A DNA stretch of 64,000 nucleotides from Candidatus Saccharimonadales bacterium (GCA_038245195.1 JBBRSU010000001.1:64121-128120), one strand, 5' to 3'; shown: positions 31,595 through 48,233, counted from the stretch's first letter. The notes: generated from the letters alone by a model not told the origin. Made by a program: numbers and translations.

Positions 31595-32020
31595 TTAACC
31601 GGTTGTCAGTTTACTCAGGGTAAACCGCACGATTAATTGGGCCAAAGCTACTACCACTAGGCCTATGATGGCATAAAGAATCGTGTTCTTAGCACTAGTT
31701 ACGCTGGTATCATTCCCGCCGCTAGTAATGTATCTAAAGCCGCCGACAATAATCATAATCACTGCCACAATGCCCACAATTGCCGATAACAGATTAACAA
31801 TTGTGTGAACAATACTGTTTATCCTATCTGTGGCATCACTTCCGGCAGATGAACACTGGCCCGGGCTTTCGGTAAACTGAAGGTTGGAACCAGCACACAG
31901 ACCATTATTTATCTGCTGTTGGGCATCCTGGGCAAAAACTGGTACAGCTAGACCGCCTGCAATCAGTACAGTGGCCACAAAGCCGCCAAGCCATATTTTA
32001 AACTTCTTCATACCCACCAT
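31595..32020 (-). CDS. VirB2/TrbC-like T4SS pilin paralog 1
   Basis: Signal peptide, Cys pair in the variable region, then a two-TM hairpin with the loop GGFRYITSGGN...SAKNTILYAIIGLVVVALAQ shared by all seven paralogs. Confidence 0.7.
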   Translation of the reverse strand: MVGMKKFKIWLGGFVATVLIAGGLAVPVFAQDAQQQINNGLCAGSNLQFTESPGQCSSAGSDATDRINSIVHTIVNLLSAIVGIVAVIMIIVGGFRYITSGGNDTSVTSAKNTILYAIIGLVVVALAQLIVRFTLSKLTTG

Positions 32021-32051
32021 TATATTGGAATATTATTCTCTATCCTAGTAA

Positions 32052-32492
32052 CTAGCCAGTTACGTTAGTAGTATTGTTCAATACAAAGTGAACAATAATT
32101 TGTGCTAGTGCTACGATGACTAGCCCAATGATTGCATATAGGATGGTATTCTTCGCTGATTTAGCACCTTCTGGGTTACCCGCACTGACAACATAGCGGA
32201 AACCACCGATAATTATCATTACTACCGCGATAGCACCGATTATAACCGATAACACGTTAATTACGGTTCTGATCAGCTTGCCTATGCCACTACTTCCTTG
32301 ATCGCAACCTTGCGTCCCTCCAGTGAGATCGATATTAGATCCGCTACACAGACATTGATTGGTATTGCTCGGGGTTACAGTAGTACCCGTGGTACAGTCA
32401 ATGGCCATAACCGTAACTGGTATTGCGGCAGTAAGGCTGAACATTACAACAGCAATCATGGATAGTGCGATTGATTTGATTTTGTTTATCAT
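32052..32492 (-). CDS. VirB2/TrbC-like T4SS pilin paralog 2
   Basis: Signal peptide, four Cys, GGFRYVVSAGN...SAKNTILYAIIGLVIVALAQ. Confidence 0.7.
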   Translation of the reverse strand: MINKIKSIALSMIAVVMFSLTAAIPVTVMAIDCTTGTTVTPSNTNQCLCSGSNIDLTGGTQGCDQGSSGIGKLIRTVINVLSVIIGAIAVVMIIIGGFRYVVSAGNPEGAKSAKNTILYAIIGLVIVALAQIIVHFVLNNTTNVTG

Positions 32493-32565
32493 TTTTTAGT
32501 TATTCCTTATTTATATTGTTTAAGTATATATTCTCTTGTAGCATAGTCAACTTGCTTACGGCAAA

Positions 32566-33015
32566 CTATTTACACTGGCCGGTCACAGTTTTCCCTTTCG
32601 GGCAGTCCTGAACACCGTTAATTACAAACTGAACAATGATCTGCGCGAACGCAACTATTACTAAGCCAACTAAGGCATATATTATCGTGTTCTTGGCACT
32701 CTTCGTGGCCTCGGCATTACCAGAGCTTGTAACATAACGGAAACCACCGACAATTAGCATAATCACTGCGGCGGCTCCAGCAAACACTGACATTATGTTT
32801 ATAACTGTTTTGATTGTATCGCTAACCGTCGTAGGTGCTCCGGATGGATCGCAATTTGCGGCGGTGCCATTGGCTTCACAGGTCCCACATTGAATCTGTT
32901 CTTTAGAACTTGCGGGTGCACTACAGTTGATTGCCGCATAAGCAGGCGACAAAGGGAACAGTGAGCCAGTGATTAGAGTCACAAGCAAAGTTATTTTTAT
33001 TATAAAGTTTTTCAT
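32566..33015 (-). CDS. VirB2/TrbC-like T4SS pilin paralog 3
   Basis: Signal peptide, four Cys, GGFRYVTSSGN...SAKNTIIYALVGLVIVAFAQ, plus an extra C-terminal Cys pair (DCPKGKTVTGQCK). Confidence 0.7.
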   Translation of the reverse strand: MKNFIIKITLLVTLITGSLFPLSPAYAAINCSAPASSKEQIQCGTCEANGTAANCDPSGAPTTVSDTIKTVINIMSVFAGAAAVIMLIVGGFRYVTSSGNAEATKSAKNTIIYALVGLVIVAFAQIIVQFVINGVQDCPKGKTVTGQCK

Positions 33016-33025
33016 ACTTACCTAT

Positions 33026-33433
33026 TTACTTTAACAGCCTATCTGTTACAAAAGAAATAGTGGTCCAAGCTAGAGCAACTATTATCAACCCAATTACAGC
33101 ATAAATAATTCTTTTTCTAGCGTTGGCTACAGCTTCGGCATTGCCCGAGGAAGTTATCATTGTAATACCGCCGAGAATTATATACACAACTGCAGCCACG
33201 CCAGTAGCAATTGCGATAATTTCAGTAGCGGTTTTAATAACTTTATTTACTGGATTAGTTGATGTACCCGAACCGATATCTTTACATACCGCACTGTTGG
33301 CCGCAGTGCTCCCCGATTTACAAATCTGAAATAATTGGCTGTTAGTGGTTGCTGCAAGTGTAGGACTTCCTAAAGCTAAAGTACTGTAGGCTATCAATGC
33401 TACCAGAAGAATTGCTGAAAATATTCTATTCAT
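33026..33433 (-). CDS. VirB2/TrbC-like T4SS pilin paralog 4
   Basis: Signal peptide, two Cys, GGITMITSSGN...NARKRIIYAVIGLIIVALA. Confidence 0.65.
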   Translation of the reverse strand: MNRIFSAILLVALIAYSTLALGSPTLAATTNSQLFQICKSGSTAANSAVCKDIGSGTSTNPVNKVIKTATEIIAIATGVAAVVYIILGGITMITSSGNAEAVANARKRIIYAVIGLIIVALAWTTISFVTDRLLK

Positions 33434-33705
33434 GGTGCTCTATTCAATACGAAATTCACAATTGTCGCTGCCAATGCTATTACCACTAAGCCCACGAGCG
33501 TATAAGTTATCATCCGCTTGGAATCAGCTACCTTAGTCGCGTCGCCCTGGGAAATAGTATAGCGGAATCCAGCAATCACTAGCATGAGTAGTGCGAGGGC
33601 TCCCATTATTCCCAAAATAATGTTGATAATGTTTGTGATGTCGTTAGCCTTGGCGTGTGGCAAGTTTGATGCGTCTACCAATATGGAAAAAAGGCCCATG
33701 CTCAA
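33430..33705 (-). CDS. VirB2/TrbC-like paralog 5 (short, no signal peptide or Cys region)
   Basis: 91 aa. AGFRYTISQGD...DSKRMITYTLVGLVVIALA. ATGA overlaps with both neighbours. Confidence 0.6.
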   Translation of the reverse strand: MSMGLFSILVDASNLPHAKANDITNIINIILGIMGALALLMLVIAGFRYTISQGDATKVADSKRMITYTLVGLVVIALAATIVNFVLNRAP

Positions 33706-34094
33706 CCTAACCTACTTCCAATAAATGAAACAGCCGCCGTAGCTACCAGCACCACTCCCAAGCCTAGCAATGAGTTAACTATTCTTTTACGCGAAGCTGT
33801 AATCTTATCAGAACTACCGGCAGCGGTTATGTAACTTATGCCTGCGACTATTATGGATATAACCGCCGCCAAGCCCGCTAAACGTAGTAGCATATCGATA
33901 ATTGCCAAGCCCACAAGCCAAGTATCACCTGGAAAATTAAAAGCCGGTACACACTTCCCCAGTGGGTCCTTTTCGGTCCCAAGATATTCCCACCAATGCG
34001 GGAAACCAAAAAATGAGCTCTTTGTTATAGTACAGACCGGTGCAGAAGCCGCCAGAAAAATGAACGGAATTTTTAGTAAAGCAAGCAGGTACAT
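33702..34094 (-). CDS. VirB2/TrbC-like paralog 6 (divergent, Trp-rich N-region)
   Basis: FFGFPHWWEYLG segment, two Cys, AGISYITAAGS...ASRKRIVNSLLGLGVVLVA. Confidence 0.55.
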   Translation of the reverse strand: MYLLALLKIPFIFLAASAPVCTITKSSFFGFPHWWEYLGTEKDPLGKCVPAFNFPGDTWLVGLAIIDMLLRLAGLAAVISIIVAGISYITAAGSSDKITASRKRIVNSLLGLGVVLVATAAVSFIGSRLG

Positions 34095-34538
34095 CTAGAG
34101 TCCCCCGGGAATTAGCCATTGCAGGAATGCAAAAGTGAAAATAAAAGCAACTAGTGCGATTAGACCATCTGATATTCGTTTCTTAGCCGCACCAGTTGCT
34201 GTTGAGTTATCTCCTGCGAGGCTATATTGAATGCCGCCAACAATAATTGAACCAATCACTACAATTGCCACGCCAGCCGATAAAAAGTTAACTATTAGGT
34301 TTATGTCCTTAACTATCGGGTCGGTTGCTATGCATTTTTGAACACCAACATCAGTAGAGTTATTACAGTTAGGGTTTGTCACTGTGGTGGTGGTAGCTGA
34401 GCCGCTAGTATCGCTCCCCGAGGAGTTGGATAACAATGCTAAAGTAGATGGAACAGTCATATTTAGACATATAAGAATCGCAGTCGCTAGAATTACTTTC
34501 TTAGATATTTGTTTTAGAGCTTTTTTCAATTGTTTCAT
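34095..34538 (-). CDS. VirB2/TrbC-like paralog 7 (first gene of the minus-strand array)
   Basis: Signal/anchor, Ser/Thr-rich region, two Cys, GGIQYSLAGDN...AAKKRISDGLIALVAFIFTFA. Its stop abuts the start of paralog 6. Confidence 0.6.
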   Translation of the reverse strand: MKQLKKALKQISKKVILATAILICLNMTVPSTLALLSNSSGSDTSGSATTTTVTNPNCNNSTDVGVQKCIATDPIVKDINLIVNFLSAGVAIVVIGSIIVGGIQYSLAGDNSTATGAAKKRISDGLIALVAFIFTFAFLQWLIPGGL

Positions 34539-39190: not shown

Positions 39191-40192
39191 ATGGCTGTAT
39201 ATAAGGTAATTCAAGATGTCGAGGCCGAGGACAAACTACTTGGCCCTCTAAGCTTTAAGGCATTTATTTACGCAATCATTGCCGGCCTTTGCGGATTTAT
39301 AAATTTTAAACTGTTGTTTTTAGGGACTCCCATTAAGTGGGCAATTATGCCTCTCCTCTCATTCCCTATGATTCTTTTCGGCGTTTTGGCATCACCCCTA
39401 GGCCACGATCAGCCAACCGAAGTTTGGCTTTTATCAAGAATCAAGTTTTTCCTAAAGACAAGAAAACGAATTTGGGACCAGGCAGGCTTAGAAGAACTGG
39501 TGACAGTAACAGCTCCTAAGAAACTAGAACAGCATCTTACTAAGGATATTACTCAGAGTGAGGTCCATAGCCGACTCAAGACCTTAGCTAGTACTTTAGA
39601 CACCCGCGGCTGGGCAATCAAAAACGTCGATACAAACCTTAACACAACCGTACCCAATAACCCGGGGCTAAGCCAATCATCTGATAGGCTGGTGGCAAAT
39701 GCTGGGTATACACAGCCGGCGACGGTTATTGATGTACGACCAGCCGATGATATTTTAGACGAACAAAACAACCCCACCGCTCAAAAATTCGCCAGCCTTA
39801 TGCAGCAGGCTGATTCGAATCGCAAACAAACGGTTTTAGAAACCATGCAAAACTTAATTAACGACGATGACCAAGGTGATGGCATTAAATTATCCGATGC
39901 AAATGACTTCCAAAGCCGAATGGCCAAGGCTAGGGCTAGCTTTAGTAACCAGCACAGCAAAGATTCAAAACATGCTAATTCACAACATAAAGTTATTGAT
40001 TCAAAAAACGTCCACCACGAACCGCCAAAAAAAGCTGAGCCAACCCCGATGACAAGCGAACGCCAAGCTGTTAATATGGAGTTAGCCCAAAGCGGTAGTG
40101 CTTTTAGTGTATCGACTTTGTCTCAGCTGGCCAATCGCCAGCCCCGGATGGAGCAAACTGGGCCCAACGAAGTTACGATTTCACTGCACTAG
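39191..40192 (+). CDS. PrgI-family (VirB3-like) membrane protein with long C-terminal extension
   Basis: The N-terminus MAVYKVIQDVEAEDKLLGPLSFKAFIYAIIAGL..., two TM helices, then DQPTEVWLLSRIKFFLKTRKRIW match the PrgI/VirB3-analog pattern of monoderm T4SSs. Confidence 0.55.
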   Translation: MAVYKVIQDVEAEDKLLGPLSFKAFIYAIIAGLCGFINFKLLFLGTPIKWAIMPLLSFPMILFGVLASPLGHDQPTEVWLLSRIKFFLKTRKRIWDQAGLEELVTVTAPKKLEQHLTKDITQSEVHSRLKTLASTLDTRGWAIKNVDTNLNTTVPNNPGLSQSSDRLVANAGYTQPATVIDVRPADDILDEQNNPTAQKFASLMQQADSNRKQTVLETMQNLINDDDQGDGIKLSDANDFQSRMAKARASFSNQHSKDSKHANSQHKVIDSKNVHHEPPKKAEPTPMTSERQAVNMELAQSGSAFSVSTLSQLANRQPRMEQTGPNEVTISLH

Positions 40193-40237
40193 GCTAATTA
40201 AACAGCCTAAACCAAAAACGGGTGGTAAAAATTAAAG

Positions 40238-41101
40238 ATGAACCCAGCTAGTCAACCAACTACCAACACGCCTGGCCCTCAGCCAGTTTATTCTGGTGAG
40301 GATTTTGTACCAGGTACAGTTAATGCACCCAATGCACCAGGTATAGTCCCCCCACAGCAATCTATTACCAACCCTAACAGTACCCAAAACGCCCTTCAGA
40401 TTAGTGAAATACGCGACGGCATAGTGATTATGAACGACGGCAGTTTTAGAGCAGTAGTAATGTGTAAGTCCATTAATTTCGATTTAATGAGCCCCCAGGA
40501 ACGTGAAGCCGTAGAGTTTAGCTACCAGGGCTTCCTAAACTCCCTATACTTCCCAATCCAAATTTTTGTAAGAAGCCAAAAAGTCGATATGCGTCCCTAC
40601 CTGGAAAAACTCGATAAAATCCGGACTGGCCAGGATAACATGTTGCTGGGTTTGCTTATGGAAGACTACATCGCATTCCTGGCTGACATCGTCCAGCAAA
40701 CAAACATTATGGATAAGAAGTTTTACATAGTTATAAAATTCCCAGATGTTGAAGTTGATGTGCGTAAAGCCTTAAAACAAAGCACCAGTTTCTTTACCGG
40801 CTTAGGCGAGCTATTTAGCTCCGGCAAAACCGCACATGTAACAATCGATGAGTCTACCTTAGAAAAAGCCAAAACCGAGCTTCGTAACCGGGTCCAGGCT
40901 GTTATGCAGGGCCTGGCTCAGTGCGGAGTACAAAGTTTGCCGTTGGATACCGAGGAGTTAATTGAGCTTTACTACGATGCCTACAACCCCGATACCGCCA
41001 CTCGGCAACAGATTAAAGACTTTAAAGACTTAACTGCACCGGTGATTTCAAAGGGCGTGGGCCCAGCACCTCAGCCTAATTTAAATGGAGGCCCAAGCTA
41101 G
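40238..41101 (+). CDS. VirB4 N-terminal-domain-like protein (separate ORF)
   Basis: ISEIRDGIVIMNDGSFRAVVMCKSINFDLMSPQEREAVEFSYQGFLNSLYFPIQIFVRSQKVDMRPYLEKL resembles the first ~200 aa of monoderm VirB4/TcpF/Orf16-type ATPases. Its stop TAG shares one nt with the GTG start of the ATPase. Confidence 0.5.
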   Translation: MNPASQPTTNTPGPQPVYSGEDFVPGTVNAPNAPGIVPPQQSITNPNSTQNALQISEIRDGIVIMNDGSFRAVVMCKSINFDLMSPQEREAVEFSYQGFLNSLYFPIQIFVRSQKVDMRPYLEKLDKIRTGQDNMLLGLLMEDYIAFLADIVQQTNIMDKKFYIVIKFPDVEVDVRKALKQSTSFFTGLGELFSSGKTAHVTIDESTLEKAKTELRNRVQAVMQGLAQCGVQSLPLDTEELIELYYDAYNPDTATRQQIKDFKDLTAPVISKGVGPAPQPNLNGGPS

Positions 41102-43005
41102 TGGCACTACCATTTGGTAAAAAAAATCCGGCACCGATTGATCCGATAGTCATGGAGAAGCAAGAGGTTGCGGCCGCGTTTGCCAAGGGGGTGACTGCAC
41201 TACGCGATTTTATTGCACCAAGCTCGCTACAATTTGACGGTAACTTCTTCCATCTAGGCACCCGCTATGCCAGGACCTACTATGTTTACGGCTACCCCCG
41301 CCAGCTATACACCGGCTGGTTATCGGGAATGGTTAACTTAGACGAAGTAATTGATTTATCAATGATTGTCCAGCCGGTTGATAGCCAAGTGGTACTTAAT
41401 AATTTACGCAAAAAAGTCAGCCAGCTGGAGGCCGGTATCCAGATTAACTCCGAAAAAGGCAAAGTACGCGACCCCGGTATGCAGGCCGCCGTGCAAGACG
41501 CTGAAGAACTACGCGACAAATTGCAGGTCGGCGAAGAGCGGTTTTTCCGCTTTGGTTTATATTTTACAATTTACGGTAATTCTTTGGAGGAGCTGGAGTT
41601 TATCAGCCATAAAGTTGAGAGTATGCTGGGCCAACAACTGGTTTATTCCAAGCCGGCCAGCTCCCAGCAAGAACAAGGCTTATCTAGTACAGTCCCTCAG
41701 TTTATGGACCAGCTACAGATTTACCGAAACATGAATACCGGTGCGATATCTACCACCTTTCCATTCACATCGGCCGATTTGACCCAAGACAACGGTATTT
41801 TATACGGCATTAATATGCATAACTCCGGTTTGGTTATTTTTGATAGATTTAGCCTAGAAAACGGCAACAGTGTGGTGTTCGCCAAGTCTGGTGCCGGCAA
41901 AAGCTTTACCGTAAAACTAGAAGCCCTGCGGTCAATGATGTTCGGCACTGAGGTATTTATCATCGACCCCGAAAACGAGTACCAAAAAATGTGCGAGGCC
42001 GTGGGTGGCGCCTATGTCCGGCTGAGCTTAAACTCGTCCACCAGAATAAACCCCTTCGATCTACCCCAAGTAATCGATAACGACGAAGCCGACAACGCAC
42101 TCCGTTCAAACCTAATAACACTTCACGGATTGCTTCGCCTGATGATGGGCGGTGCCCAGGCCCAAATGCTCCAAGGTGGGGTTACCACTATGCCAGCACT
42201 GAACCCGGCCGAAGAAGCCGACTTAGATGCTGCTTTAATTGAAACTTACGCTAAAGCCGGTATTACCAACGACCCACTTACCCACGGCTCAACTCCTCCA
42301 ACCATTAGCGACCTATACGACACGCTGCTTCATATGGGTGGCACCGGCCCACAGCTAGCCCAACGTTTGCGTAAGTATACTTCAGGAACATTTGCGGGCA
42401 TCTTCAGCCAGCAAAGCAATGTGAATGTGAATAACCCAATGGTAGTATTCAATATTCGAGACCTTGAGGATGAACTACGACCCGTAGCAATGTATATTGT
42501 GCTGAATCATATTTGGAATCGAACTAAGATCGATAAAAAACGGCGTATGTTAATCGTCGATGAAGCCTGGCAACTAATGCGCTATGAAGACAGTGCCAAC
42601 TTTATGTTTAGTATTGCGAAGCGGGCCAGGAAATATAACTTAGGCTTAACTACCATCACCCAAGACGTCGAAGATTTTATGGCCTCGCGGATGGGTAGGG
42701 CAATTGTGGCTAATGCCAGTATGCAATTCTTATTAAAACAATCGCCGTCAGCCGTTGATGTACTATCTGATGTGTTTAAGCTAACCAGCGAAGAGAAGAA
42801 ACGCCTCAGCCAATTCCCGGTTGGCCAAGGGTTGTTCTTTGCTGGCCAAAACCATGTGCACATTCAGGTTATCGCCAGCCCCACCGAAAACGAGCTGATC
42901 GCAACAAACCCCTCCCCTACGAAACCAGCACTGCAGGGCGAAGTTAATTTCCAGTCACAGTCGACCTCCGTTACGACACCGCCTTCTCAACAAGGTGCTG
43001 TATAG
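41101..43005 (+). CDS. virB4: VirB4-family T4SS ATPase
   Basis: YARTYYVYGYPRQLYTGWLSGM, Walker A KSGAGKSF (about 41881-41910), Walker B MLIVDEAW (about 42547-42570) and a TTITQDVEDF sensor-like motif. Confidence 0.88.
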   Translation: MALPFGKKNPAPIDPIVMEKQEVAAAFAKGVTALRDFIAPSSLQFDGNFFHLGTRYARTYYVYGYPRQLYTGWLSGMVNLDEVIDLSMIVQPVDSQVVLNNLRKKVSQLEAGIQINSEKGKVRDPGMQAAVQDAEELRDKLQVGEERFFRFGLYFTIYGNSLEELEFISHKVESMLGQQLVYSKPASSQQEQGLSSTVPQFMDQLQIYRNMNTGAISTTFPFTSADLTQDNGILYGINMHNSGLVIFDRFSLENGNSVVFAKSGAGKSFTVKLEALRSMMFGTEVFIIDPENEYQKMCEAVGGAYVRLSLNSSTRINPFDLPQVIDNDEADNALRSNLITLHGLLRLMMGGAQAQMLQGGVTTMPALNPAEEADLDAALIETYAKAGITNDPLTHGSTPPTISDLYDTLLHMGGTGPQLAQRLRKYTSGTFAGIFSQQSNVNVNNPMVVFNIRDLEDELRPVAMYIVLNHIWNRTKIDKKRRMLIVDEAWQLMRYEDSANFMFSIAKRARKYNLGLTTITQDVEDFMASRMGRAIVANASMQFLLKQSPSAVDVLSDVFKLTSEEKKRLSQFPVGQGLFFAGQNHVHIQVIASPTENELIATNPSPTKPALQGEVNFQSQSTSVTTPPSQQGAV

Positions 43006-43016
43006 GCTTGTAGCTT

Positions 43017-46000
43017 ATGGCCCAGGGGATAAGAAATAAAAAAAACGCTAACGAACTTGGCGACAAAAATAACCAGGAGGAATTAGTCTCCCCCGGAGAA
43101 GCTAAAGAGCTGCAACAGCTATTTAATTTACCTTCTGCTAGGTTGTCAGATAATAATTCAAACTCTACCGAATCGACTAACTCAGAAGATAGCGACAAAA
43201 AACTTACAAGAAATGATATAGAACAAGCTGAAGCCTCTGGAGGAGACCAGAGTGAAAATGCCTCTACGGAAACAGGCCCTACGGGGTCGCCCCAGGAGCA
43301 AGCATATGAGGACAGGGTCGGAAAGGGATATACGGGGGATAAAGGAAGTGCTTCAAATCGAGCTAGAAACTATAGAAGAATAGCCGCAGTTGGCGGTCTT
43401 ACTGGTGCAATTATTACGATAATGGTATTACTATTCAACTTTCTAAATGTATTTAAATTGGATGGGCTAATGTCAAATATCGAACAGAAGTCATTTTTGA
43501 GACACAACGCATCATTAAACACTCGCTCGAGTAAGTGGATATCGGCCTATGTCGAAGCACGAATGATGCAGTTCGGAGACAACCCAACTAAAAATCCTCT
43601 ATTCAGAAGTAATCGTGTTGATACTAACAGCCCTTTCACTGACTGGTATAGAACATTGCGTGCCTCTAACTTTGAACAAGATGTTTTTGAAAAACATGGT
43701 ATTAAGTTTACATCCTATTTTGATGCTAATGGTTCACCTAGACTCGGTAAAATTGATATAAGCGTCGCCGGCACAACGGACTCTATGAATCTAAAAATCC
43801 CGGATGGCGACCTTGAGGCAATAGCTAAAGGAGATCTGAAGGTTTTAAGTAATTATCAAGACTATTTTAATATGGAAAAGTTAGATAGCCATAAAGCAGG
43901 TCGACAGGCTATAAAAAAGGTTGTTAATGATAATACCCACTGGTCACAGGTATACAAACGAAGGTTTTTAAGAAGATCAATCCAGAACATGACCGGTGTT
44001 CGTAGTTGGCGTTTCTTTGAGAATACTCGTGATAAAATAACTGCTAAAAAACTCGATATTCGAAATAGGATTATCACTTACATGGTGCCGGATTCGAATG
44101 TTCTAGGTAGGGTAACTCGCTGCTTATTCGGGATTGATAATTGCACTCCAAGTCGTGACACGGCGGATCCAAAAGAACAGGTTAATGTTACTAGCGACGA
44201 ATTTGGGGCCCAGCAGCCGACTGATACGAGCACCCAAGCTCAAAAAGATGCCGAAAAAGCGCTAGCTACTGAATCAACTAAATTAGATGAAGCTGCTCTC
44301 TCGGAAACATTGCGAAATGTTTTGAAGAATGCAGGAATAATTAATCAGATTATTAACATCCCAAATACATTGGACATGTTTGCGAGTATAGACAAAGGAG
44401 TCCAGCACCTTGTGAAATACGTAGTTATCGCACGGGGCGCCCAAGCGGCCGGGCTTTTCCAGGTTTTTCAAACATCGCGAGACCAAATTAAAACTGGTCA
44501 AGTGAGCAGTGAAGAAGTTAACGCATTTATGCAGGGGATAGACACCGCGGGCAGTAGTGCCGCTTACAGCCAAGTTATAAGCGGTAACAGTACTACCCAG
44601 CCCGGTACCACTCAAAGCGGTGGTCAGTGCACACAAGCCGCTCAAGCCCTACAAGAGAAAGACCCCCAAGCTTATCTTAAGCAATTCAAAACGGACTATG
44701 CCCCGCTGTGTGCCGACCAGCAAATCGGTAGTGCCTCAAATGCTCAAAAAATTCAGGATGCCTATGATAATGGGCCTAAACAGGTGGTCCATCCAATAGT
44801 TGCATTATGGGAGTCAGCGAAAAGCAATGGATTCTTCGGGGCGATAATTAATGCCGTGGAGTGGTTCACGAATCATATATTTAATGCGTTGGCTAGTACG
44901 TTAAACGCTATCCTTGACATACTTGGGCTGAAGGGCGATTTTCAAGGTTTAGTAACTTGGGTTTTTACTAAAGTATCCAGTTTTCTTGGAGTTTCAATAT
45001 TAAAAGGTTATGAATCTGCTGGCACATTATTCAACTGGCTGGTCCAAGGTGGGGCATATTCAGCGGAATCGTCTAGCAGACAGGAGGGAGCCGCAGTGAC
45101 TAACACTGCAAGCCAAGCTAGTGCACAAAATACGATCGCACAATACATTACTGATAAGCGTACCCAGACCAGTCTTTACGATAAGTTGGCGTCACTTAAT
45201 AACCCTGATTCTCTTGCTTTCAAGGGAGCGACAATGCTAAGCAATACTAAAAGTGACCCTAGCACTGCTTTGATGGCGGGAATACACAGCTTATGGACTG
45301 GGGCTATTAAAAATATGGGAGCAATATTTAGTGGCCGACTTTTAGCAGCCTCGTCAAACGGATACGCCGCCAGTCAGTTTGCGGGCATAGAGACATATGA
45401 CTACCCCCAGAAGTGTTACGACCTAGACCCAATCACCGAGCAACCAATTGACGGCACGAATGCACCAGATATCTTACGACAGAATAATATTTCAGTACCT
45501 GAGTCACTTTATAATTGGGATACCGAACGAAGCTCAAGTATGTTTTATGCCGCGATTTATGCCGCCATTGGAGAAAACACGACAGATGGAGATAATATCG
45601 CAGTCCAGATTTATAACTGCAACCTACTTGATACCGCCGTTCGGGGCAGTCTTGGCTACTTATACGGCTACAATGCCGACGCTACATCTCAAGTTATTGA
45701 TAGTACGAACTCCACAAGCGGAGGCTCAGGCGGCACAACCCCAGGAGGTTGTGGAGGCAGTGGCAAATACTCCGCCATCGTAGATAACGGCGCAAGCTTC
45801 GCAGGCATTGACCAAGGCATTGATTTCACACCTCAGACCAGTGCCGGTTTTAATATTTGTGCACCGGGTCCCGGCACAATAACGCTTGCTGACCAAACCG
45901 GTCACAAGTTTGAAAAAACTGATGGGACGGCCGAGATAATAGAAAGGCTGGATGCACCTCCAGGCCCGATACCAAGCATCAGTCGCCAATTTATATATTA

Positions 46001-46196
46001 TGCAGAAATTATTCAGCTTGATGGGGCGATAAAAGTCGGCGCCCATGTCGCTAAGGGTGATCTGATAGGACACAATAATAAAAGCCCGGGGATAGAGGTT
46101 GGCTGGGCTCCTAGTGCAACAGCCGGCTTTGGCTGCTCCGTAGGTGGACAAACGGCATGCGGAACTGATTTCAATGATTGGGTCCAGGTGCAGTAG
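43017..46196 (+). CDS. large membrane-anchored extracytoplasmic protein with C-terminal LytM/M23-like (non-canonical) domain
   Basis: Single TM (IAAVGGLTGAIITIMVLLFNFL) after a cytoplasmic N-tail of about 120 aa. The C-terminus IDQGIDF...PGPGTIT...GDLIGH...GIEVGWAP is paralogous to the C-terminus of the next gene. Confidence 0.55.
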   Translation: MAQGIRNKKNANELGDKNNQEELVSPGEAKELQQLFNLPSARLSDNNSNSTESTNSEDSDKKLTRNDIEQAEASGGDQSENASTETGPTGSPQEQAYEDRVGKGYTGDKGSASNRARNYRRIAAVGGLTGAIITIMVLLFNFLNVFKLDGLMSNIEQKSFLRHNASLNTRSSKWISAYVEARMMQFGDNPTKNPLFRSNRVDTNSPFTDWYRTLRASNFEQDVFEKHGIKFTSYFDANGSPRLGKIDISVAGTTDSMNLKIPDGDLEAIAKGDLKVLSNYQDYFNMEKLDSHKAGRQAIKKVVNDNTHWSQVYKRRFLRRSIQNMTGVRSWRFFENTRDKITAKKLDIRNRIITYMVPDSNVLGRVTRCLFGIDNCTPSRDTADPKEQVNVTSDEFGAQQPTDTSTQAQKDAEKALATESTKLDEAALSETLRNVLKNAGIINQIINIPNTLDMFASIDKGVQHLVKYVVIARGAQAAGLFQVFQTSRDQIKTGQVSSEEVNAFMQGIDTAGSSAAYSQVISGNSTTQPGTTQSGGQCTQAAQALQEKDPQAYLKQFKTDYAPLCADQQIGSASNAQKIQDAYDNGPKQVVHPIVALWESAKSNGFFGAIINAVEWFTNHIFNALASTLNAILDILGLKGDFQGLVTWVFTKVSSFLGVSILKGYESAGTLFNWLVQGGAYSAESSSRQEGAAVTNTASQASAQNTIAQYITDKRTQTSLYDKLASLNNPDSLAFKGATMLSNTKSDPSTALMAGIHSLWTGAIKNMGAIFSGRLLAASSNGYAASQFAGIETYDYPQKCYDLDPITEQPIDGTNAPDILRQNNISVPESLYNWDTERSSSMFYAAIYAAIGENTTDGDNIAVQIYNCNLLDTAVRGSLGYLYGYNADATSQVIDSTNSTSGGSGGTTPGGCGGSGKYSAIVDNGASFAGIDQGIDFTPQTSAGFNICAPGPGTITLADQTGHKFEKTDGTAEIIERLDAPPGPIPSISRQFIYYAEIIQLDGAIKVGAHVAKGDLIGHNNKSPGIEVGWAPSATAGFGCSVGGQTACGTDFNDWVQVQ

Positions 46197-47519
46197 ATGT
46201 TTAAGCTTTTGGATAAATCGAAGAGGTTAAAGCTTGATAACTCATTGTTTATATTAGTGGCTTGCATTATCTTCCTTGGTCCCGTTAGAGTGAGTTTTGC
46301 TGCTACTTTACCTAGTGATGACACCAATAGTATTTATAATGACACGGTTTGGTACGACCCTAGCAATAGCGTCAGCAATAGCTCGGCATATGACTGTTCT
46401 ACCACCTATGGTTCTGTGTCGACCACCCAAGCCCAATCAGATATTATTAAGATCATAATCGGCATTGCTAAAACAGATAATCTTGGCAAGACTGGAGCTG
46501 TAATCGGCCTGATGGCTGGCGATGATGAGTCGGGTTTTAAAATATTAGCAAATTCCAATGTGCCAGTTTCACTTAGTATCCCCAACCAGGGGGTTGGGAG
46601 TAACGGAAACTCAGTGGGAGTCTTCCAGCAGCAGCCAAATTACGGATGGAGCACTATAGACACCGGAACTTCTGCGCTTACCAATCGCGCAGCTCTTGCA
46701 CAGCTAATGGATCCCGCCTATTCAGCTGAGGCATTTTTTGGAAGCCCCGCGGGTTCCAACGCACCGAGTGCTCTTAGTAAAGGATTACAGAATATTAACT
46801 GGAAATCAATGAGCCCCGCTGAAGCGGCTTCGACAGTACAAGGTAACCTCGCTGGTGCATCGGTTTATGCCAATTTTCAAGCGGACGCCGAAGCATTTGT
46901 GAACCAATACTGGGACTCCAGCCCGGCGGTACCTTTACCCGTACCCCTAAATAATACTGGCACTCCGGGCACTGACATATCTGGGGCTCAGCTATGTTCT
47001 GGGAGTACCCCACTTGGTACCTATAAAAATCCGTTTCGTGCGATTCAGCAAGCGGGAAAACTTAGAGCGGAACGAATCGATGAAGGCGTAGACTATGGTG
47101 GCGAAGGCCCAGTATATGCACTAGGCGATGGAAAAATTACAAACCTTACTAACTCCGGATGGAATTTTGGTGGCTATGATGCATTCGTAGGAGAGCTGTT
47201 AACTAGTGGCCCGGCTAAGGGTTTGTATGTATATATGGCTGAGGCCTGCGTACCTAGAGCAAGCCTACAGATTGGGGATGTCGTAAATGCGGATACAATT
47301 ATCTGCGATATGATAAATCCTACGGATACTGGGATTGAGACGGGTTGGGCAGCACCTCCAGGTGTCGGTGCTGCAATAGCTAACGGCCAATACGACAAAG
47401 GAGCTACAGCATATGGTGTTAATTATAATCAGCTCCTAGTAAAACTGGGAGCTCCCTCGGGGATTAATGAAACTAATTCAGTAACGGGAACCCTGCCAAC
47501 CGGCTGGCCGAAATGGTAG
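46197..47519 (+). CDS. secreted cell-wall hydrolase-like protein: lytic-transglycosylase-like N-domain + LytM/M23-like (non-canonical) C-domain (VirB1/PrgK analog)
   Basis: Signal/anchor. The DDESGF ... VGVFQQQP ... AYSAEAFF spacing recalls the SLT motifs E-S / GLMQ / AY. The C-terminus is IDEGVDYGGEGPVYALGDGKIT...GIETGWAAP. Confidence 0.55.
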   Translation: MFKLLDKSKRLKLDNSLFILVACIIFLGPVRVSFAATLPSDDTNSIYNDTVWYDPSNSVSNSSAYDCSTTYGSVSTTQAQSDIIKIIIGIAKTDNLGKTGAVIGLMAGDDESGFKILANSNVPVSLSIPNQGVGSNGNSVGVFQQQPNYGWSTIDTGTSALTNRAALAQLMDPAYSAEAFFGSPAGSNAPSALSKGLQNINWKSMSPAEAASTVQGNLAGASVYANFQADAEAFVNQYWDSSPAVPLPVPLNNTGTPGTDISGAQLCSGSTPLGTYKNPFRAIQQAGKLRAERIDEGVDYGGEGPVYALGDGKITNLTNSGWNFGGYDAFVGELLTSGPAKGLYVYMAEACVPRASLQIGDVVNADTIICDMINPTDTGIETGWAAPPGVGAAIANGQYDKGATAYGVNYNQLLVKLGAPSGINETNSVTGTLPTGWPKW

Positions 47520-47522
47520 CAT

Positions 47523-48233
47523 ATGGATAAATCTATGGAACATGTAAAGAATATGAATATAAAGCGGGTGGGACTACTGGTATTACTATTACTGCTAGGC
47601 TGGGGTGTTTTTATATTTTATGAAAACCTGCATTTCAGGATTATCAGTACATCACCAGGCCCAAATCAAATGAGTATCTGGACCCCGATCTTTAAGATCG
47701 AGCTGAATAAGCCAGTTTCAAATTCCGGCACTTCAATTACAGTGAGCCCGGACATAATCTACAATCATAAGGTGACGGTTTCGGGTAAAACAGTTACTGT
47801 TTATTTAAATGTCCCCCTCGATAGTACGAAAACCTACACAATTGATATCCATAACATCACTTCGACTAGTGGACAGAAAATCACCGACAAACATTTCACC
47901 TTCAATCCTATACAAAATGACAGGGGAAACCTACCAGACGATCAAAGGGAAGAGTTGATCCGACGCAATCAACAATCGGATATATATAGCGACCCGATAC
48001 TAGCTAATTTGCCATATCGCAACGTTGACTTTAGCTTAGTGAGCTCATTTGGTACTTCCAATAATAATCAGCCCTCGTTAAATCTCCAGGCACAGTTATT
48101 GATACATGCAGCCCAGTCTGGAGATAAGGCTGCTGCTGTTGCTTCCGGTAAGCAGGAAGTAGTTGATTATATAACATCGCTCGGCTTGGATCCTAATAAA
48201 TACAAGATACGATATACGATACTCGGGCCATAA
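47523..48233 (+). CDS. membrane-anchored protein with Ig-like (SbsA/Big-like) domain, last gene of the T4SS operon
   Basis: N-terminal TM (VGLLVLLLLLGWGVFIF). The beta-rich segment SITVSPDIIYNHKVTVSGKTVTVYLNVPLDSTKTYTIDIHNITSTSG resembles bacterial Ig-like domains. Confidence 0.45.
   Translation: MDKSMEHVKNMNIKRVGLLVLLLLLGWGVFIFYENLHFRIISTSPGPNQMSIWTPIFKIELNKPVSNSGTSITVSPDIIYNHKVTVSGKTVTVYLNVPLDSTKTYTIDIHNITSTSGQKITDKHFTFNPIQNDRGNLPDDQREELIRRNQQSDIYSDPILANLPYRNVDFSLVSSFGTSNNNQPSLNLQAQLLIHAAQSGDKAAAVASGKQEVVDYITSLGLDPNKYKIRYTILGP

Follow-up and report, generated by a model that had tools for sequence, protein, structure and literature searches.

The C-terminal domains of two proteins encoded side by side in the origin-proximal T4SS locus of a Saccharibacteria-type genome, directly 3' of virB4, form, as judged from profile comparisons and predicted structures, a distinct branch of the M23/LytM superfamily that has yet to be curated; in this branch, four near-invariant carboxylates appear to occupy the positions of the zinc-peptidase active site. 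The reading favoured here, to which we give about an even chance, is that this 'acid domain' cleaves peptidoglycan as an active hydrolase module built around a carboxylate or hard-metal centre and serves the origin-proximal T4SS. The features on which the analysis rests, all from one 64,000-nucleotide stretch of DNA ('the window'), are collected in Table 1.

Table 1. Features of the T4SS locus, with positions counted from the first nucleotide of the window.
Feature	Position	Strand	Basis
Array of six T4SS pilin (VirB2-like) genes, same T4SS region	31595..34538	-	Pfam T4SS_pilin
PrgI/VirB3-like gene	39191..40192	+	Pfam PrgI, E 8e-8
287-aa gene; TraC-like at equivalent position of related loci	40238..41101	+	Gene order
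VirB4 ATPase gene	41101..43005	+	Pfam P-loop_TraG, E 8e-27
Gene for 1059-aa T4SS-locus protein	43017..46196	+	ORF; membrane helix and C-terminal wall-enzyme slot
Acid-substituted M23/LytM-like domain, copy 1 (aa 925-1059 of 1059-aa protein)	45789..46193	+	Family profile, AF2, Foldseek
Gene for 440-aa two-domain wall enzyme, putatively exported	46197..47519	+	ORF; N-terminal hydrophobic segment
GH184-like muramidase core (matched aa 77-150 of 440-aa protein)	46425..46646	+	phmmer against PDB
Acid-substituted M23/LytM-like domain, copy 2 (aa 276-440 of 440-aa protein)	47022..47516	+	AF2, Foldseek, hhalign
Gene for 236-aa membrane-anchored Ig-like (Big_5) protein	47523..48233	+	Pfam Big_5, E 7.6e-6

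Flanked by PrgI, VirB4 and a pilin array in which all six ORFs match T4SS_pilin (E 1e-15 to 3e-4, with four of the six reaching the curated Pfam cut-off), the two acid-domain genes lie inside the T4SS gene cluster. The gene order of the T4SS core (39191..43005) recurs in two related loci, L005 and L006, in which a Pfam TraC-like match falls on the gene following PrgI; the synteny of the two wall genes with T4SS genes is repeated in four other loci, and syntenic homologues of the 440-aa gene are found in L001, L005 and L006. The Big_5 gene is the final operon gene ahead of recF, and L004 has the same family at the equivalent position. The ATG of the 440-aa gene directly adjoins the stop codon of the 1059-aa gene, to which it is probably translationally coupled. 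Hydropathy indicates one strong membrane helix in the 1059-aa protein (aa 121-151), the long part C-terminal of which would be extracytoplasmic, and a hydrophobic signal or anchor at the N-terminus of the 440-aa protein (aa 11-39); because each of the two proteins has such an N-terminal anchor, both acid domains are predicted to be exported.

The same layout is seen in 'Ca. Southlakia epibionticum' ML1: a pilin array, PrgI, a 293-aa gene (TraC-like in related loci), VirB4, a large protein (~1,100 aa) that ends in a peptidase module, a lysozyme protein of several domains and recF-dnaN-dnaA. In that strain, SEML1_0006 and SEML1_0007 occupy the positions of the two acid-domain genes, that of the 1059-aa gene being taken by SEML1_0007; according to Tn-seq both are essential to epibiotic growth (PMC10633639; PMC12102498), and the equivalent pilin array is essential as well (PMC10633639). 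By analogy, the two acid-domain genes may be required for T4SS function. The modules themselves differ: the large ML1 protein has an M15B (Hedgehog/DD-peptidase) module where the 1059-aa protein has an acid domain, and the next ML1 protein combines two lysozyme-like domains with a cysteine peptidase, whereas the 440-aa protein combines a GH184-like muramidase with an acid domain. The analogy with VirB1/PrgK wall enzymes drawn in the initial annotation is apt, and like genes of that type the two lie in a T4SS cluster beside virB4. In contrast to VirB1/PrgK/TraG-type enzymes, however, neither the 440-aa nor the 1059-aa protein has a Pfam SLT or CHAP match, and GH184-like lysozyme and acid domains are found instead.

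The N-terminal half of the 440-aa protein had been described as SLT-like. The E-S and G-V-F-Q-Q elements of that description are present (DDES at 109-112 and GVFQQ at 141-145), but Pfam SLT is unmatched and phmmer against the PDB matches aa 77-150 to 8b2h (E 1e-9) and 8b2e (E 2e-9); on sequence grounds, this half is better described as a GH184-like muramidase, the domain probably extending to about aa 240. E111, within DDES, aligns to the catalytic Glu41 of KsGH184, which is essential in that enzyme (PMC10394673), and the position of KsGH184 Asp66 is taken by Asn136. The closest structural relative of GH184 is the N-terminal lysozyme-like domain of phi29 gp13, which is followed by a C-terminal LytM-like domain (PMC10394673), a two-domain layout like that of the 440-aa protein. 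While gp13 is a phage tail protein whose C-terminal domain is described as LytM/M23-like, the 440-aa protein is chromosomal, belongs to a T4SS locus, has an acid-substituted site and finds no sequence match in the phage collection.

That the C-termini of the two proteins are paralogous, as originally proposed from shared motifs, is borne out by BLASTP, which pairs aa 931-1053 of the longer protein with aa 294-411 of the shorter at 30% identity (E 4e-5), and by an independent profile of outside homologues of the 440-aa domain (window sequences and relatives of the 1059-aa copy being left out), which gives E 1.3e-9 at aa 931-1035 when the 1059-aa protein is the single target. Run against the six-frame ORF segments of the window, 259 in all, this profile recovers the 1059-aa copy (E 3.3e-7) and gives no other match among them, and the family profile matches the 1059-aa protein at aa 926-1059 (E 5e-32). 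Both proteins contain the motifs that had been quoted for them: IDQGID at 931, YYAE at 994-997 and GIEVGW at 1025 in the longer, and IDEGVD at 294, YMAE at 346-349 and GIETGW at 379 in the shorter. The initial annotation missed that the copies are old paralogues from two subfamilies, which are ~27% identical, rather than the product of a local duplication.

The assignment of the shared domain to an M23/LytM scaffold (LytM, lysostaphin; PF01551; LAS metallopeptidases) is upheld by fold prediction. With AF2 models of copy 1 (pLDDT 88, pTM 0.85) and copy 2 (pLDDT 84, pTM 0.81), the top Foldseek matches in the PDB are all M23/LytM (TM for LytM 0.57-0.59, normalised to target), with DipM, EnvC, PrgK-LytM and 3csq (phi29 gp13) also among them; a BFVD structure search returned M23 peptidases alone, and profile-profile comparison by hhalign relates copy 2 to LytM and lysostaphin (94%, E 1e-7). 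The elements follow the M23 order, from a ligand strand (xxGxD) through a PVYA strand and the hybrid-motif hairpin V-x-x-G-x-x-I-G to a last strand and a C-terminal helix; as in M23, the Asp ligand is retained and the proteins are putatively exported and wall-directed, often with fused lysozymes. Matches to Pfam Peptidase_M23, by contrast, stay under the cut-off: neither full-length protein matches at E<=1, the trimmed 440-aa domain scores 14.1 bits against a gathering cut-off of 28.7, and family members that were inspected score 23.3 and 19.3 bits. Such sub-threshold matches occur in 20 of 21 trimmed domains and in 64 of 75 members, spanning profile positions 4-79 of 96. HMMER separates the acid family from canonical M23, matching only about 2,100 clusters, and neither Pfam nor NCBIfam contains a model for it.

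At the former active site, hhalign places D295 of the 440-aa protein on LytM His210, so that the HxxxD histidine is Asp, as had been noted, and D299 on the retained Asp214 ligand; E349 aligns to the catalytic His260. This third position, an invariant Glu in the family, had been missed in the initial annotation. The proposed replacement of HxH by I-E-x-G-W stands as regards the strand, which is the sole beta-strand remaining after the hairpin and ahead of the C-terminal helix, like HxHF in M23; the register of E381-x-G383-W against HxH comes from element order rather than superposition, the Glu corresponding to either the first or the second His. Relative to M23, then, the family has His210 replaced by Asp, His260 by Glu and HxH by E-x-G with an invariant Gly, and its main subfamily adds a Y-x-N-P-L-R lead and, at the C-terminus, a helical extension; in copy 2 these are seen as a conserved Y-x-N-P-x-R lead and an extension terminating in LPxGWPxW. 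The key residues are D932, D936, E997, E1027, G1029 and W1030 in copy 1, and D295, D299, E349, E381, G383 and W384 in copy 2.

Neither the HxxxD nor the HxH zinc-ligand motif is present in the acid domains, by hhalign or by sequence. An ordinary zinc M23 endopeptidase with merely misaligned ligands would account for the fold and for the weak Pfam M23 matches, although these stay below the gathering cut-off (14 bits against 28.7); it is refuted by the sequences themselves, and we give it practically no credence. The 440-aa protein contains no histidine from aa 251 to 440, so that a corrected alignment cannot restore His ligands and the claim of replaced ligands survives, and the three histidines of copy 1 are neither at ligand positions nor conserved in the family.

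Among 271 domains, Asp is found at the D295 position in 266 of 267 non-gap cases, D299 and E349 are each kept in 270, E381 in 269, G383 in all and W384 in 267, whereas His is never seen at the substituted positions. The few departures at acidic positions (D to A, D to N, E to V or Q) resemble sporadic loss of an active site. The four carboxylates (D, D, E, E) are kept in at least 98% of domains from subfamilies as divergent as these two, and the acidic site is under strong selection. The family comprises 2,099 clusters at 50% identity with E<=1e-3 (1,599 with E<=1e-10), from Saccharibacteria-type genomes and from high-G+C, actinobacteria-like genomes, and near-invariance across so large a family, another point missed in the initial annotation, argues against simple degeneration. 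Usually the domain shares a protein with lysozyme, SLT or esterase modules, Phage_lysozyme2 being the most frequent partner (22 of 64), followed by SLT_2, SLT, GH73, Amidase_3, GDSL esterase and LysM. A literature search returned no report of enzymatic activity or metal binding for any member.

An Asp/Glu-only site is typical of glycoside hydrolases, and this, with the consistent lack of His in many members, would fit a switch of substrate in which two carboxylates serve as acid and base of a glycosidase or lytic-transglycosylase-like enzyme (cf. MltA and RlpA-type folds). We regard such a switch as very unlikely: no glycosidase fold was matched by the acid domains in the PDB and BFVD searches, where all matches were M23, and the lone GH75 Pfam match falls outside the domain. 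In nearly all cases, moreover, the acid domain has a dedicated glycan-cleaving domain as its fusion partner, beside which a second would be redundant.

The domain might, alternatively, be a non-catalytic LytM factor. It would bind peptidoglycan or a partner hydrolase and would target or regulate the muramidase next to it or further wall enzymes of the T4SS; EnvC and NlpD act in this way on amidases, DipM on lytic transglycosylases and PrgK-LytM (pCF10) on the PrgK muramidase. The acidic cluster would then serve to bind a ligand, such as the basic amine of a stem peptide, a helix of a partner or a structural calcium ion. Both copies have lost their His ligands, as have these four proteins, which share the LytM fold and three of which are among the structural matches given above. 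To our knowledge, every LytM domain without His ligands (EnvC, NlpD, DipM, PrgK-LytM) is non-catalytic. PrgK is a monoderm-type T4SS wall enzyme whose LytM domain, like the acid domain of the 440-aa protein, adjoins a fused muramidase; that LytM domain is inactive and damps its neighbour (PMC11323569), and other such LytM domains are likewise described as inactive and regulatory. These facts, together with the loss of all canonical metal ligands except one Asp, speak against an active hydrolase. Degenerate LytM factors, on the other hand, are defined by loss of the active-site motif, whereas in the acid family the former active-site positions are not free to vary, contrary to what would be expected of such factors. 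We know of no degenerate LytM factor reported to have conserved substituted ligand positions. A LytM factor is the main rival to the favoured reading, a real possibility if one well short of even.

The orthologues of the 1059-aa protein (n=71, retrieved with its N-terminal 800 aa) differ in their C-terminal module, which is placed after a conserved linker, IYNCNLLDTAVRG. This slot holds VanY/M15B in 17 of them, a canonical M23 domain with HxH in 7, CHAP in one and GDPD in one; it is empty in about 20, and others have the acid domain. A pure binding module (LysM, SH3b) is found in none, and a slot otherwise given to catalytic modules argues against a LytM factor. In related loci, the acid domain is combined with a glycosidase domain and lies on one or the other gene of the pair.

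The active hydrolase favoured here would most likely cleave the peptide part of the wall, like the M23, M15B and CHAP modules found in the same slot. The carboxylate cluster would activate a water molecule, probably with the help of zinc or of a hard metal ion (Ca, Mg, Mn) held by Asp/Asp/Glu in place of His/Asp/His, and the domain and the muramidase would jointly make a local opening in the wall for the T4SS with its pilus, the wall in question being the epibiont's own and possibly the host cell's too. The all-carboxylate site could instead hold calcium in a structural role or for the binding of sugar. Cultivated Saccharibacteria usually have Actinobacteria as hosts, and a more far-reaching proposal, which we consider unlikely but worth stating, is that a new catalytic type has arisen from M23 zinc peptidases: an all-carboxylate hydrolase, metal-assisted or metal-free, that is a stand-alone housekeeping wall enzyme in Actinobacteria and was recruited in Saccharibacteria, possibly by gene transfer from the host, into an essential T4SS to cut actinobacterial-type wall at the contact between epibiont and host. 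The stand-alone actinobacterial members consist of an anchor and the domain, an architecture that an enzyme and a regulator fit equally well.

M23/LytM domains have so far fallen into two groups, zinc enzymes (with a His/Asp/His site) and 'dead' regulators. The acid domain that ends both the 1059-aa and the 440-aa protein (an M23/LytM-like domain in which the zinc-binding histidines are replaced by conserved Asp/Asp/Glu/Glu) would form a third, with about 2,100 sequence clusters and a strictly conserved site; conservation of that kind is what marks out a site that still works, but by other chemistry. The domain belongs to a T4SS locus, and the sole genetically tractable Saccharibacterium cannot live as an epibiont without its counterpart of this locus; orthologues fill its 'slot' (the C-terminal module position of the 1059-aa protein) with known wall peptidases. 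Two questions are raised: whether a LytM fold can hydrolyse without histidines, and which wall bonds the T4SS of Saccharibacteria must cut, their own or those of the host. For Patescibacteria, M23 modules and wall enzymes linked to T4SSs are on record already (PMC12102498); the all-carboxylate LytM-like family is absent from the sources searched, and neither an acid-substituted LytM domain nor M23 in a Saccharibacteria T4SS is described in the literature searched.

The kinship of the two C-termini, proposed in the initial annotation, was borne out: BLASTP aligned them at 30% identity over ~125 residues (E 4e-5), and a profile made solely from outside homologues of the 440-aa copy picked up the 1059-aa protein (aa 931-1035) with E 1.3e-9 when this was the single target. 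Searched over all 259 ORF segments of the window, the profile found the 1059-aa protein at E 3.3e-7 and no further match. Since the copies are only 27% identical to one another and each groups with a separate subfamily (the 1059-aa copy with a small one, that of P0121 and P0122, at 56-66% identity; the 440-aa copy with the main one, at 45-73%), they are old paralogues, not the outcome of a local duplication.

Both domains were modelled from family alignments with AF2 (aa 251-440 of the 440-aa protein, pLDDT 84 and pTM 0.81; aa 911-1059 of the 1059-aa protein, pLDDT 88 and pTM 0.85). All significant Foldseek matches in the PDB were M23/LytM structures, among them LysTt72, lysostaphin, Csd3, phi29 gp13, DipM, EnvC, PrgK-LytM and LytM itself (TM ~0.58, normalised to LytM), and in BFVD the top matches that bear a name were M23 peptidases, or lysins and tail proteins that contain M23, each of them a distant one (10-20% identity). 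The M23/LytM fold suspected from the sequence is thus what structure searches with both models return. Pfam Peptidase_M23 matched 64 of 75 full-length members and, when trimmed domains were scanned, 20 of 21; the matches inspected all scored below the gathering cut-off and were confined to profile positions 4-79 of 96. Searching the PDB sequences with a profile was weak, reaching M23 only at E 2.7, and hhalign against LytM and lysostaphin (reference sequences verified against PDB) was therefore used; it aligned the trimmed family alignment at 94% probability and E 1e-7.

In that alignment, the LytM zinc ligands His210 and Asp214 fall upon D295 and D299 of the 440-aa protein, and the catalytic His260 upon E349; the 1059-aa protein has D932, D936, E997, E1027, G1029 and W1030 as its equivalents of the key residues. 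The confidently aligned region ends after the hybrid-motif hairpin, beyond which each model contains a further strand (I-E-T-G-W-A in the 440-aa protein, G-I-E-V-G-W in the 1059-aa protein) followed by a helix. The same order of elements is seen in M23 domains, where the HxHF strand precedes a C-terminal v-D-P-x-x-y-L helix, so that E381-x-G383-W384 takes the place of H291-x-H293-F294. On this modelled correspondence E381 would replace His291, and an invariant glycine the ligand His293; it is the best match for the aromatic residue, and a shift of two residues is possible. Forcing hhalign to run globally through the C-terminal part gave zero-confidence, mutually conflicting alignments. One such alternative, pairing T-A-Y-G-V-N-F with T-A-P-H-V-H-F, was rejected: both models fold this segment confidently into a helix, the Asn within it varies (N/S/D/A), and the segment matches the C-terminal helix of M23 better than the HxHF strand. 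That the domain is an ordinary M23 peptidase whose ligands were simply mis-aligned is unlikely, because aa 251-440 of the 440-aa protein contain no histidine; the replacement of the His ligands, as first claimed, accordingly held upon realignment.

Among 271 aligned domains, D295 is conserved in 266/267 (non-gap), D299 and E349 in 270 each, E381 in 269, G383 in all 271 and W384 in 267; the rare exceptions are single substitutions to A, N, V or Q, of the kind that occurs in dying enzyme copies. The initial annotation had picked out a real feature and read it essentially correctly as a substituted M23 domain; only the description 'degenerate' gave way, the acid residues being conserved instead. 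The acid domain is thus a branch of M23 in which the acid substitutions have been conserved and the site has not degenerated. When the domain profile was run with HMMER over the full set of 1.84 billion cluster representatives, 2,099 clusters reached E<=1e-3, 1,599 reached E<=1e-10 and 400 reached E<=1e-30. The family is a discrete one, without bleed into canonical M23, which is very much larger. Since neither Pfam nor NCBIfam has a model for it (with NCBIfam, neither the window proteins nor 75 family members gave a match), its members go through annotation pipelines as hypothetical proteins; a few JGI records name them 'MepM/NlpD'. A scan of the genome contig collection found a single related locus, and tblastn of the domain against plasmid and phage collections gave no match, so that a phage or plasmid origin is not supported within those collections.

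Ahead of the domain, the main subfamily carries a nearly invariant Y-x-N-P-(L/F)-R motif (Y276 invariant; N278, P279 and R281 at least 90% conserved; high model confidence) that is missing from the 1059-aa copy. This lead may cover the site as a lid, in the way of the occluding segment of latent LytM, or may help to form the substrate groove.

With the query limited to the first 800 residues of the 1059-aa protein, a search found 71 orthologues, which share a conserved linker (IYNCNLLDTAVRGSLGY) and then differ in their C-terminal ends. The extra module is absent in ~20 (proteins of ~880 aa); it is VanY/M15B by Pfam in 17 (with others showing M15 H-x6-D...HxH motifs), canonical M23 with HxH in seven (P0336 also having a textbook HxxxD), CHAP in one and GDPD in one; M23 plus Exo_endo_phos also occurs, and the acid domain is found in the 1059-aa protein and in P0317. 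Modules have clearly been shuffled here behind a junction that stays fixed, and the acid domain swaps with proven peptidase families and never with a pure binding module. Its placements are paired with glycan enzymes (in the related locus L004 the large protein carries it and a GH73-like protein is adjacent; in L001, L005 and L006 it is only on the 440-aa-type protein), so that the locus appears to require both a glycan-cutting enzyme and a module of the peptidase type.

The slot interchange is the strongest argument, though an indirect one, that the domain may be catalytically competent; the carboxylate cluster would be functional as a catalytic or metal centre, and the bond that it cuts would probably lie in the peptide moiety. 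The main rival, a LytM factor that acts as a binder or regulator, has a precedent in PrgK, where a degenerate LytM domain without activity of its own dampens the muramidase, and others in DipM, EnvC and NlpD; it is also favoured by the fact that, to our knowledge, no LytM domain lacking His has ever been shown to be active. Both the conservation pattern of the acid residues and the slot test argue against such a role, and in favor of a working centre.

Features of the T4SS locus (window positions)
Feature	Position	Strand	Remark
Six consecutive T4SS pilin genes	31595..34538	-	VirB2-like, PF18895; upstream of operon
Two large genes, 1009 aa and 472 aa	34666-39123	+	between pilin array and prgI
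PrgI/VirB3-like gene	39191..40192	+	
287-aa gene	40238..41101	+	TraC-like at equivalent position of related loci
VirB4 gene	41101..43005	+	
1059-aa protein gene	43017..46196	+	
Linker IYNCNLLDTAVRGSLGY.YGY	45600-45790		~aa 860-925 of 1059-aa protein; seen in P0279-P0348
440-aa protein gene	46197..47519	+	
Y-x-N-P-(L/F)-R lead	47022-47039		aa 276-281 of 440-aa protein
236-aa Big_5 protein gene	47523..48233	+	
recF, dnaN, dnaA	48244-52032	-	directly beyond T4SS operon

The acid-domain genes lie within a tightly packed operon, and since recF, dnaN and dnaA adjoin it the T4SS sits at the replication origin, a location reported for Patescibacteria; it is the origin-proximal T4SS described for Saccharibacteria, and close orthologues of the window proteins carry the label Candidatus Saccharibacteria. 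Pilins are normally absent from monoderm-type T4SSs. In the 1059-aa protein, basic residues precede a single strong hydrophobic helix (aa 121-151), and the 440-aa protein has an N-terminal signal or anchor (aa 11-39); from these segments both acid domains would be extracytoplasmic. In 'Ca. Southlakia epibionticum' ML1, SEML1_0004-0019 have the same layout and are essential for epibiotic growth (PMC10633639; noted in PMC12102498), the first gene after virB4 encoding 1113 aa that end in a peptidase domain of the M15B type, and the second a protein with two lysozyme-like domains and a cysteine peptidase (PMC10633639). The six-pilin array of the window mirrors the essential pilin array of ML1, and the 1009-aa and 472-aa genes, which have no Pfam match, correspond by position to SEML1_0011 to SEML1_0013, one of which is annotated as VirB6-like from structure.

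In the 440-aa protein the acid domain is partnered by a GH184-like muramidase (E 1e-9 to PDB entries 8b2h and 8b2e), in which E111 aligns with catalytic Glu41 of KsGH184, a residue essential in that enzyme (PMC10394673). In structure GH184 comes nearest to the lysozyme domain at the N-terminus of phi29 gp13, a protein that has a LytM-like domain at its C-terminus (PMC10394673); the 440-aa protein, with its lysozyme-type domain followed by a LytM-like one, thus repeats the gp13 architecture. A 444-aa homologue in L001 (9986-11320, MAG MAS3.bin45) retains the acid domain, and its N-terminal half, which looks unlike the GH184-like one, has a W-S-E-G-G motif and no Pfam match; it may be another unrecognised lysozyme-like module.

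Lower-G+C family members are longer than high-G+C ones, and among 64 that were scanned there are fusions to Phage_lysozyme2 (22), SLT_2 (5), SLT (4), GDSL esterase (5) and, in single cases, GH73, Amidase_3, LysM, GH3 and GH75. The last of these, a Pfam chitosanase match, would point to a glycosidase-type enzyme; domain-only sequences give no GH75 signal, so that the match belongs to a separate fused domain and such an enzyme is unlikely. Unusual fusions are seen in P0142, P0256 and P0135: the first carries a GDSL esterase, a phage-tail lysozyme and then the acid domain (possibly an O-acetyl-peptidoglycan esterase paired with a muramidase), and P0135, at 2367 aa, has two domain copies, one having lost its last Glu.

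The main subfamily is also abundant in high-G+C, actinobacteria-like genomes (L002 8001-8900; L003 8001-8819; P0007-P0120), where members are mostly 230-330 aa long and consist of a membrane anchor joined to the domain by a Pro/Ala-rich linker. As cultivated Saccharibacteria have Actinobacteria for hosts, genes may have passed between host and epibiont. These stand-alone anchored proteins are 45-52% identical to the Saccharibacteria copy; both of the contexts inspected are housekeeping ones, one adjoining aceE and a fabD-fabH-acpP-kasA cluster.
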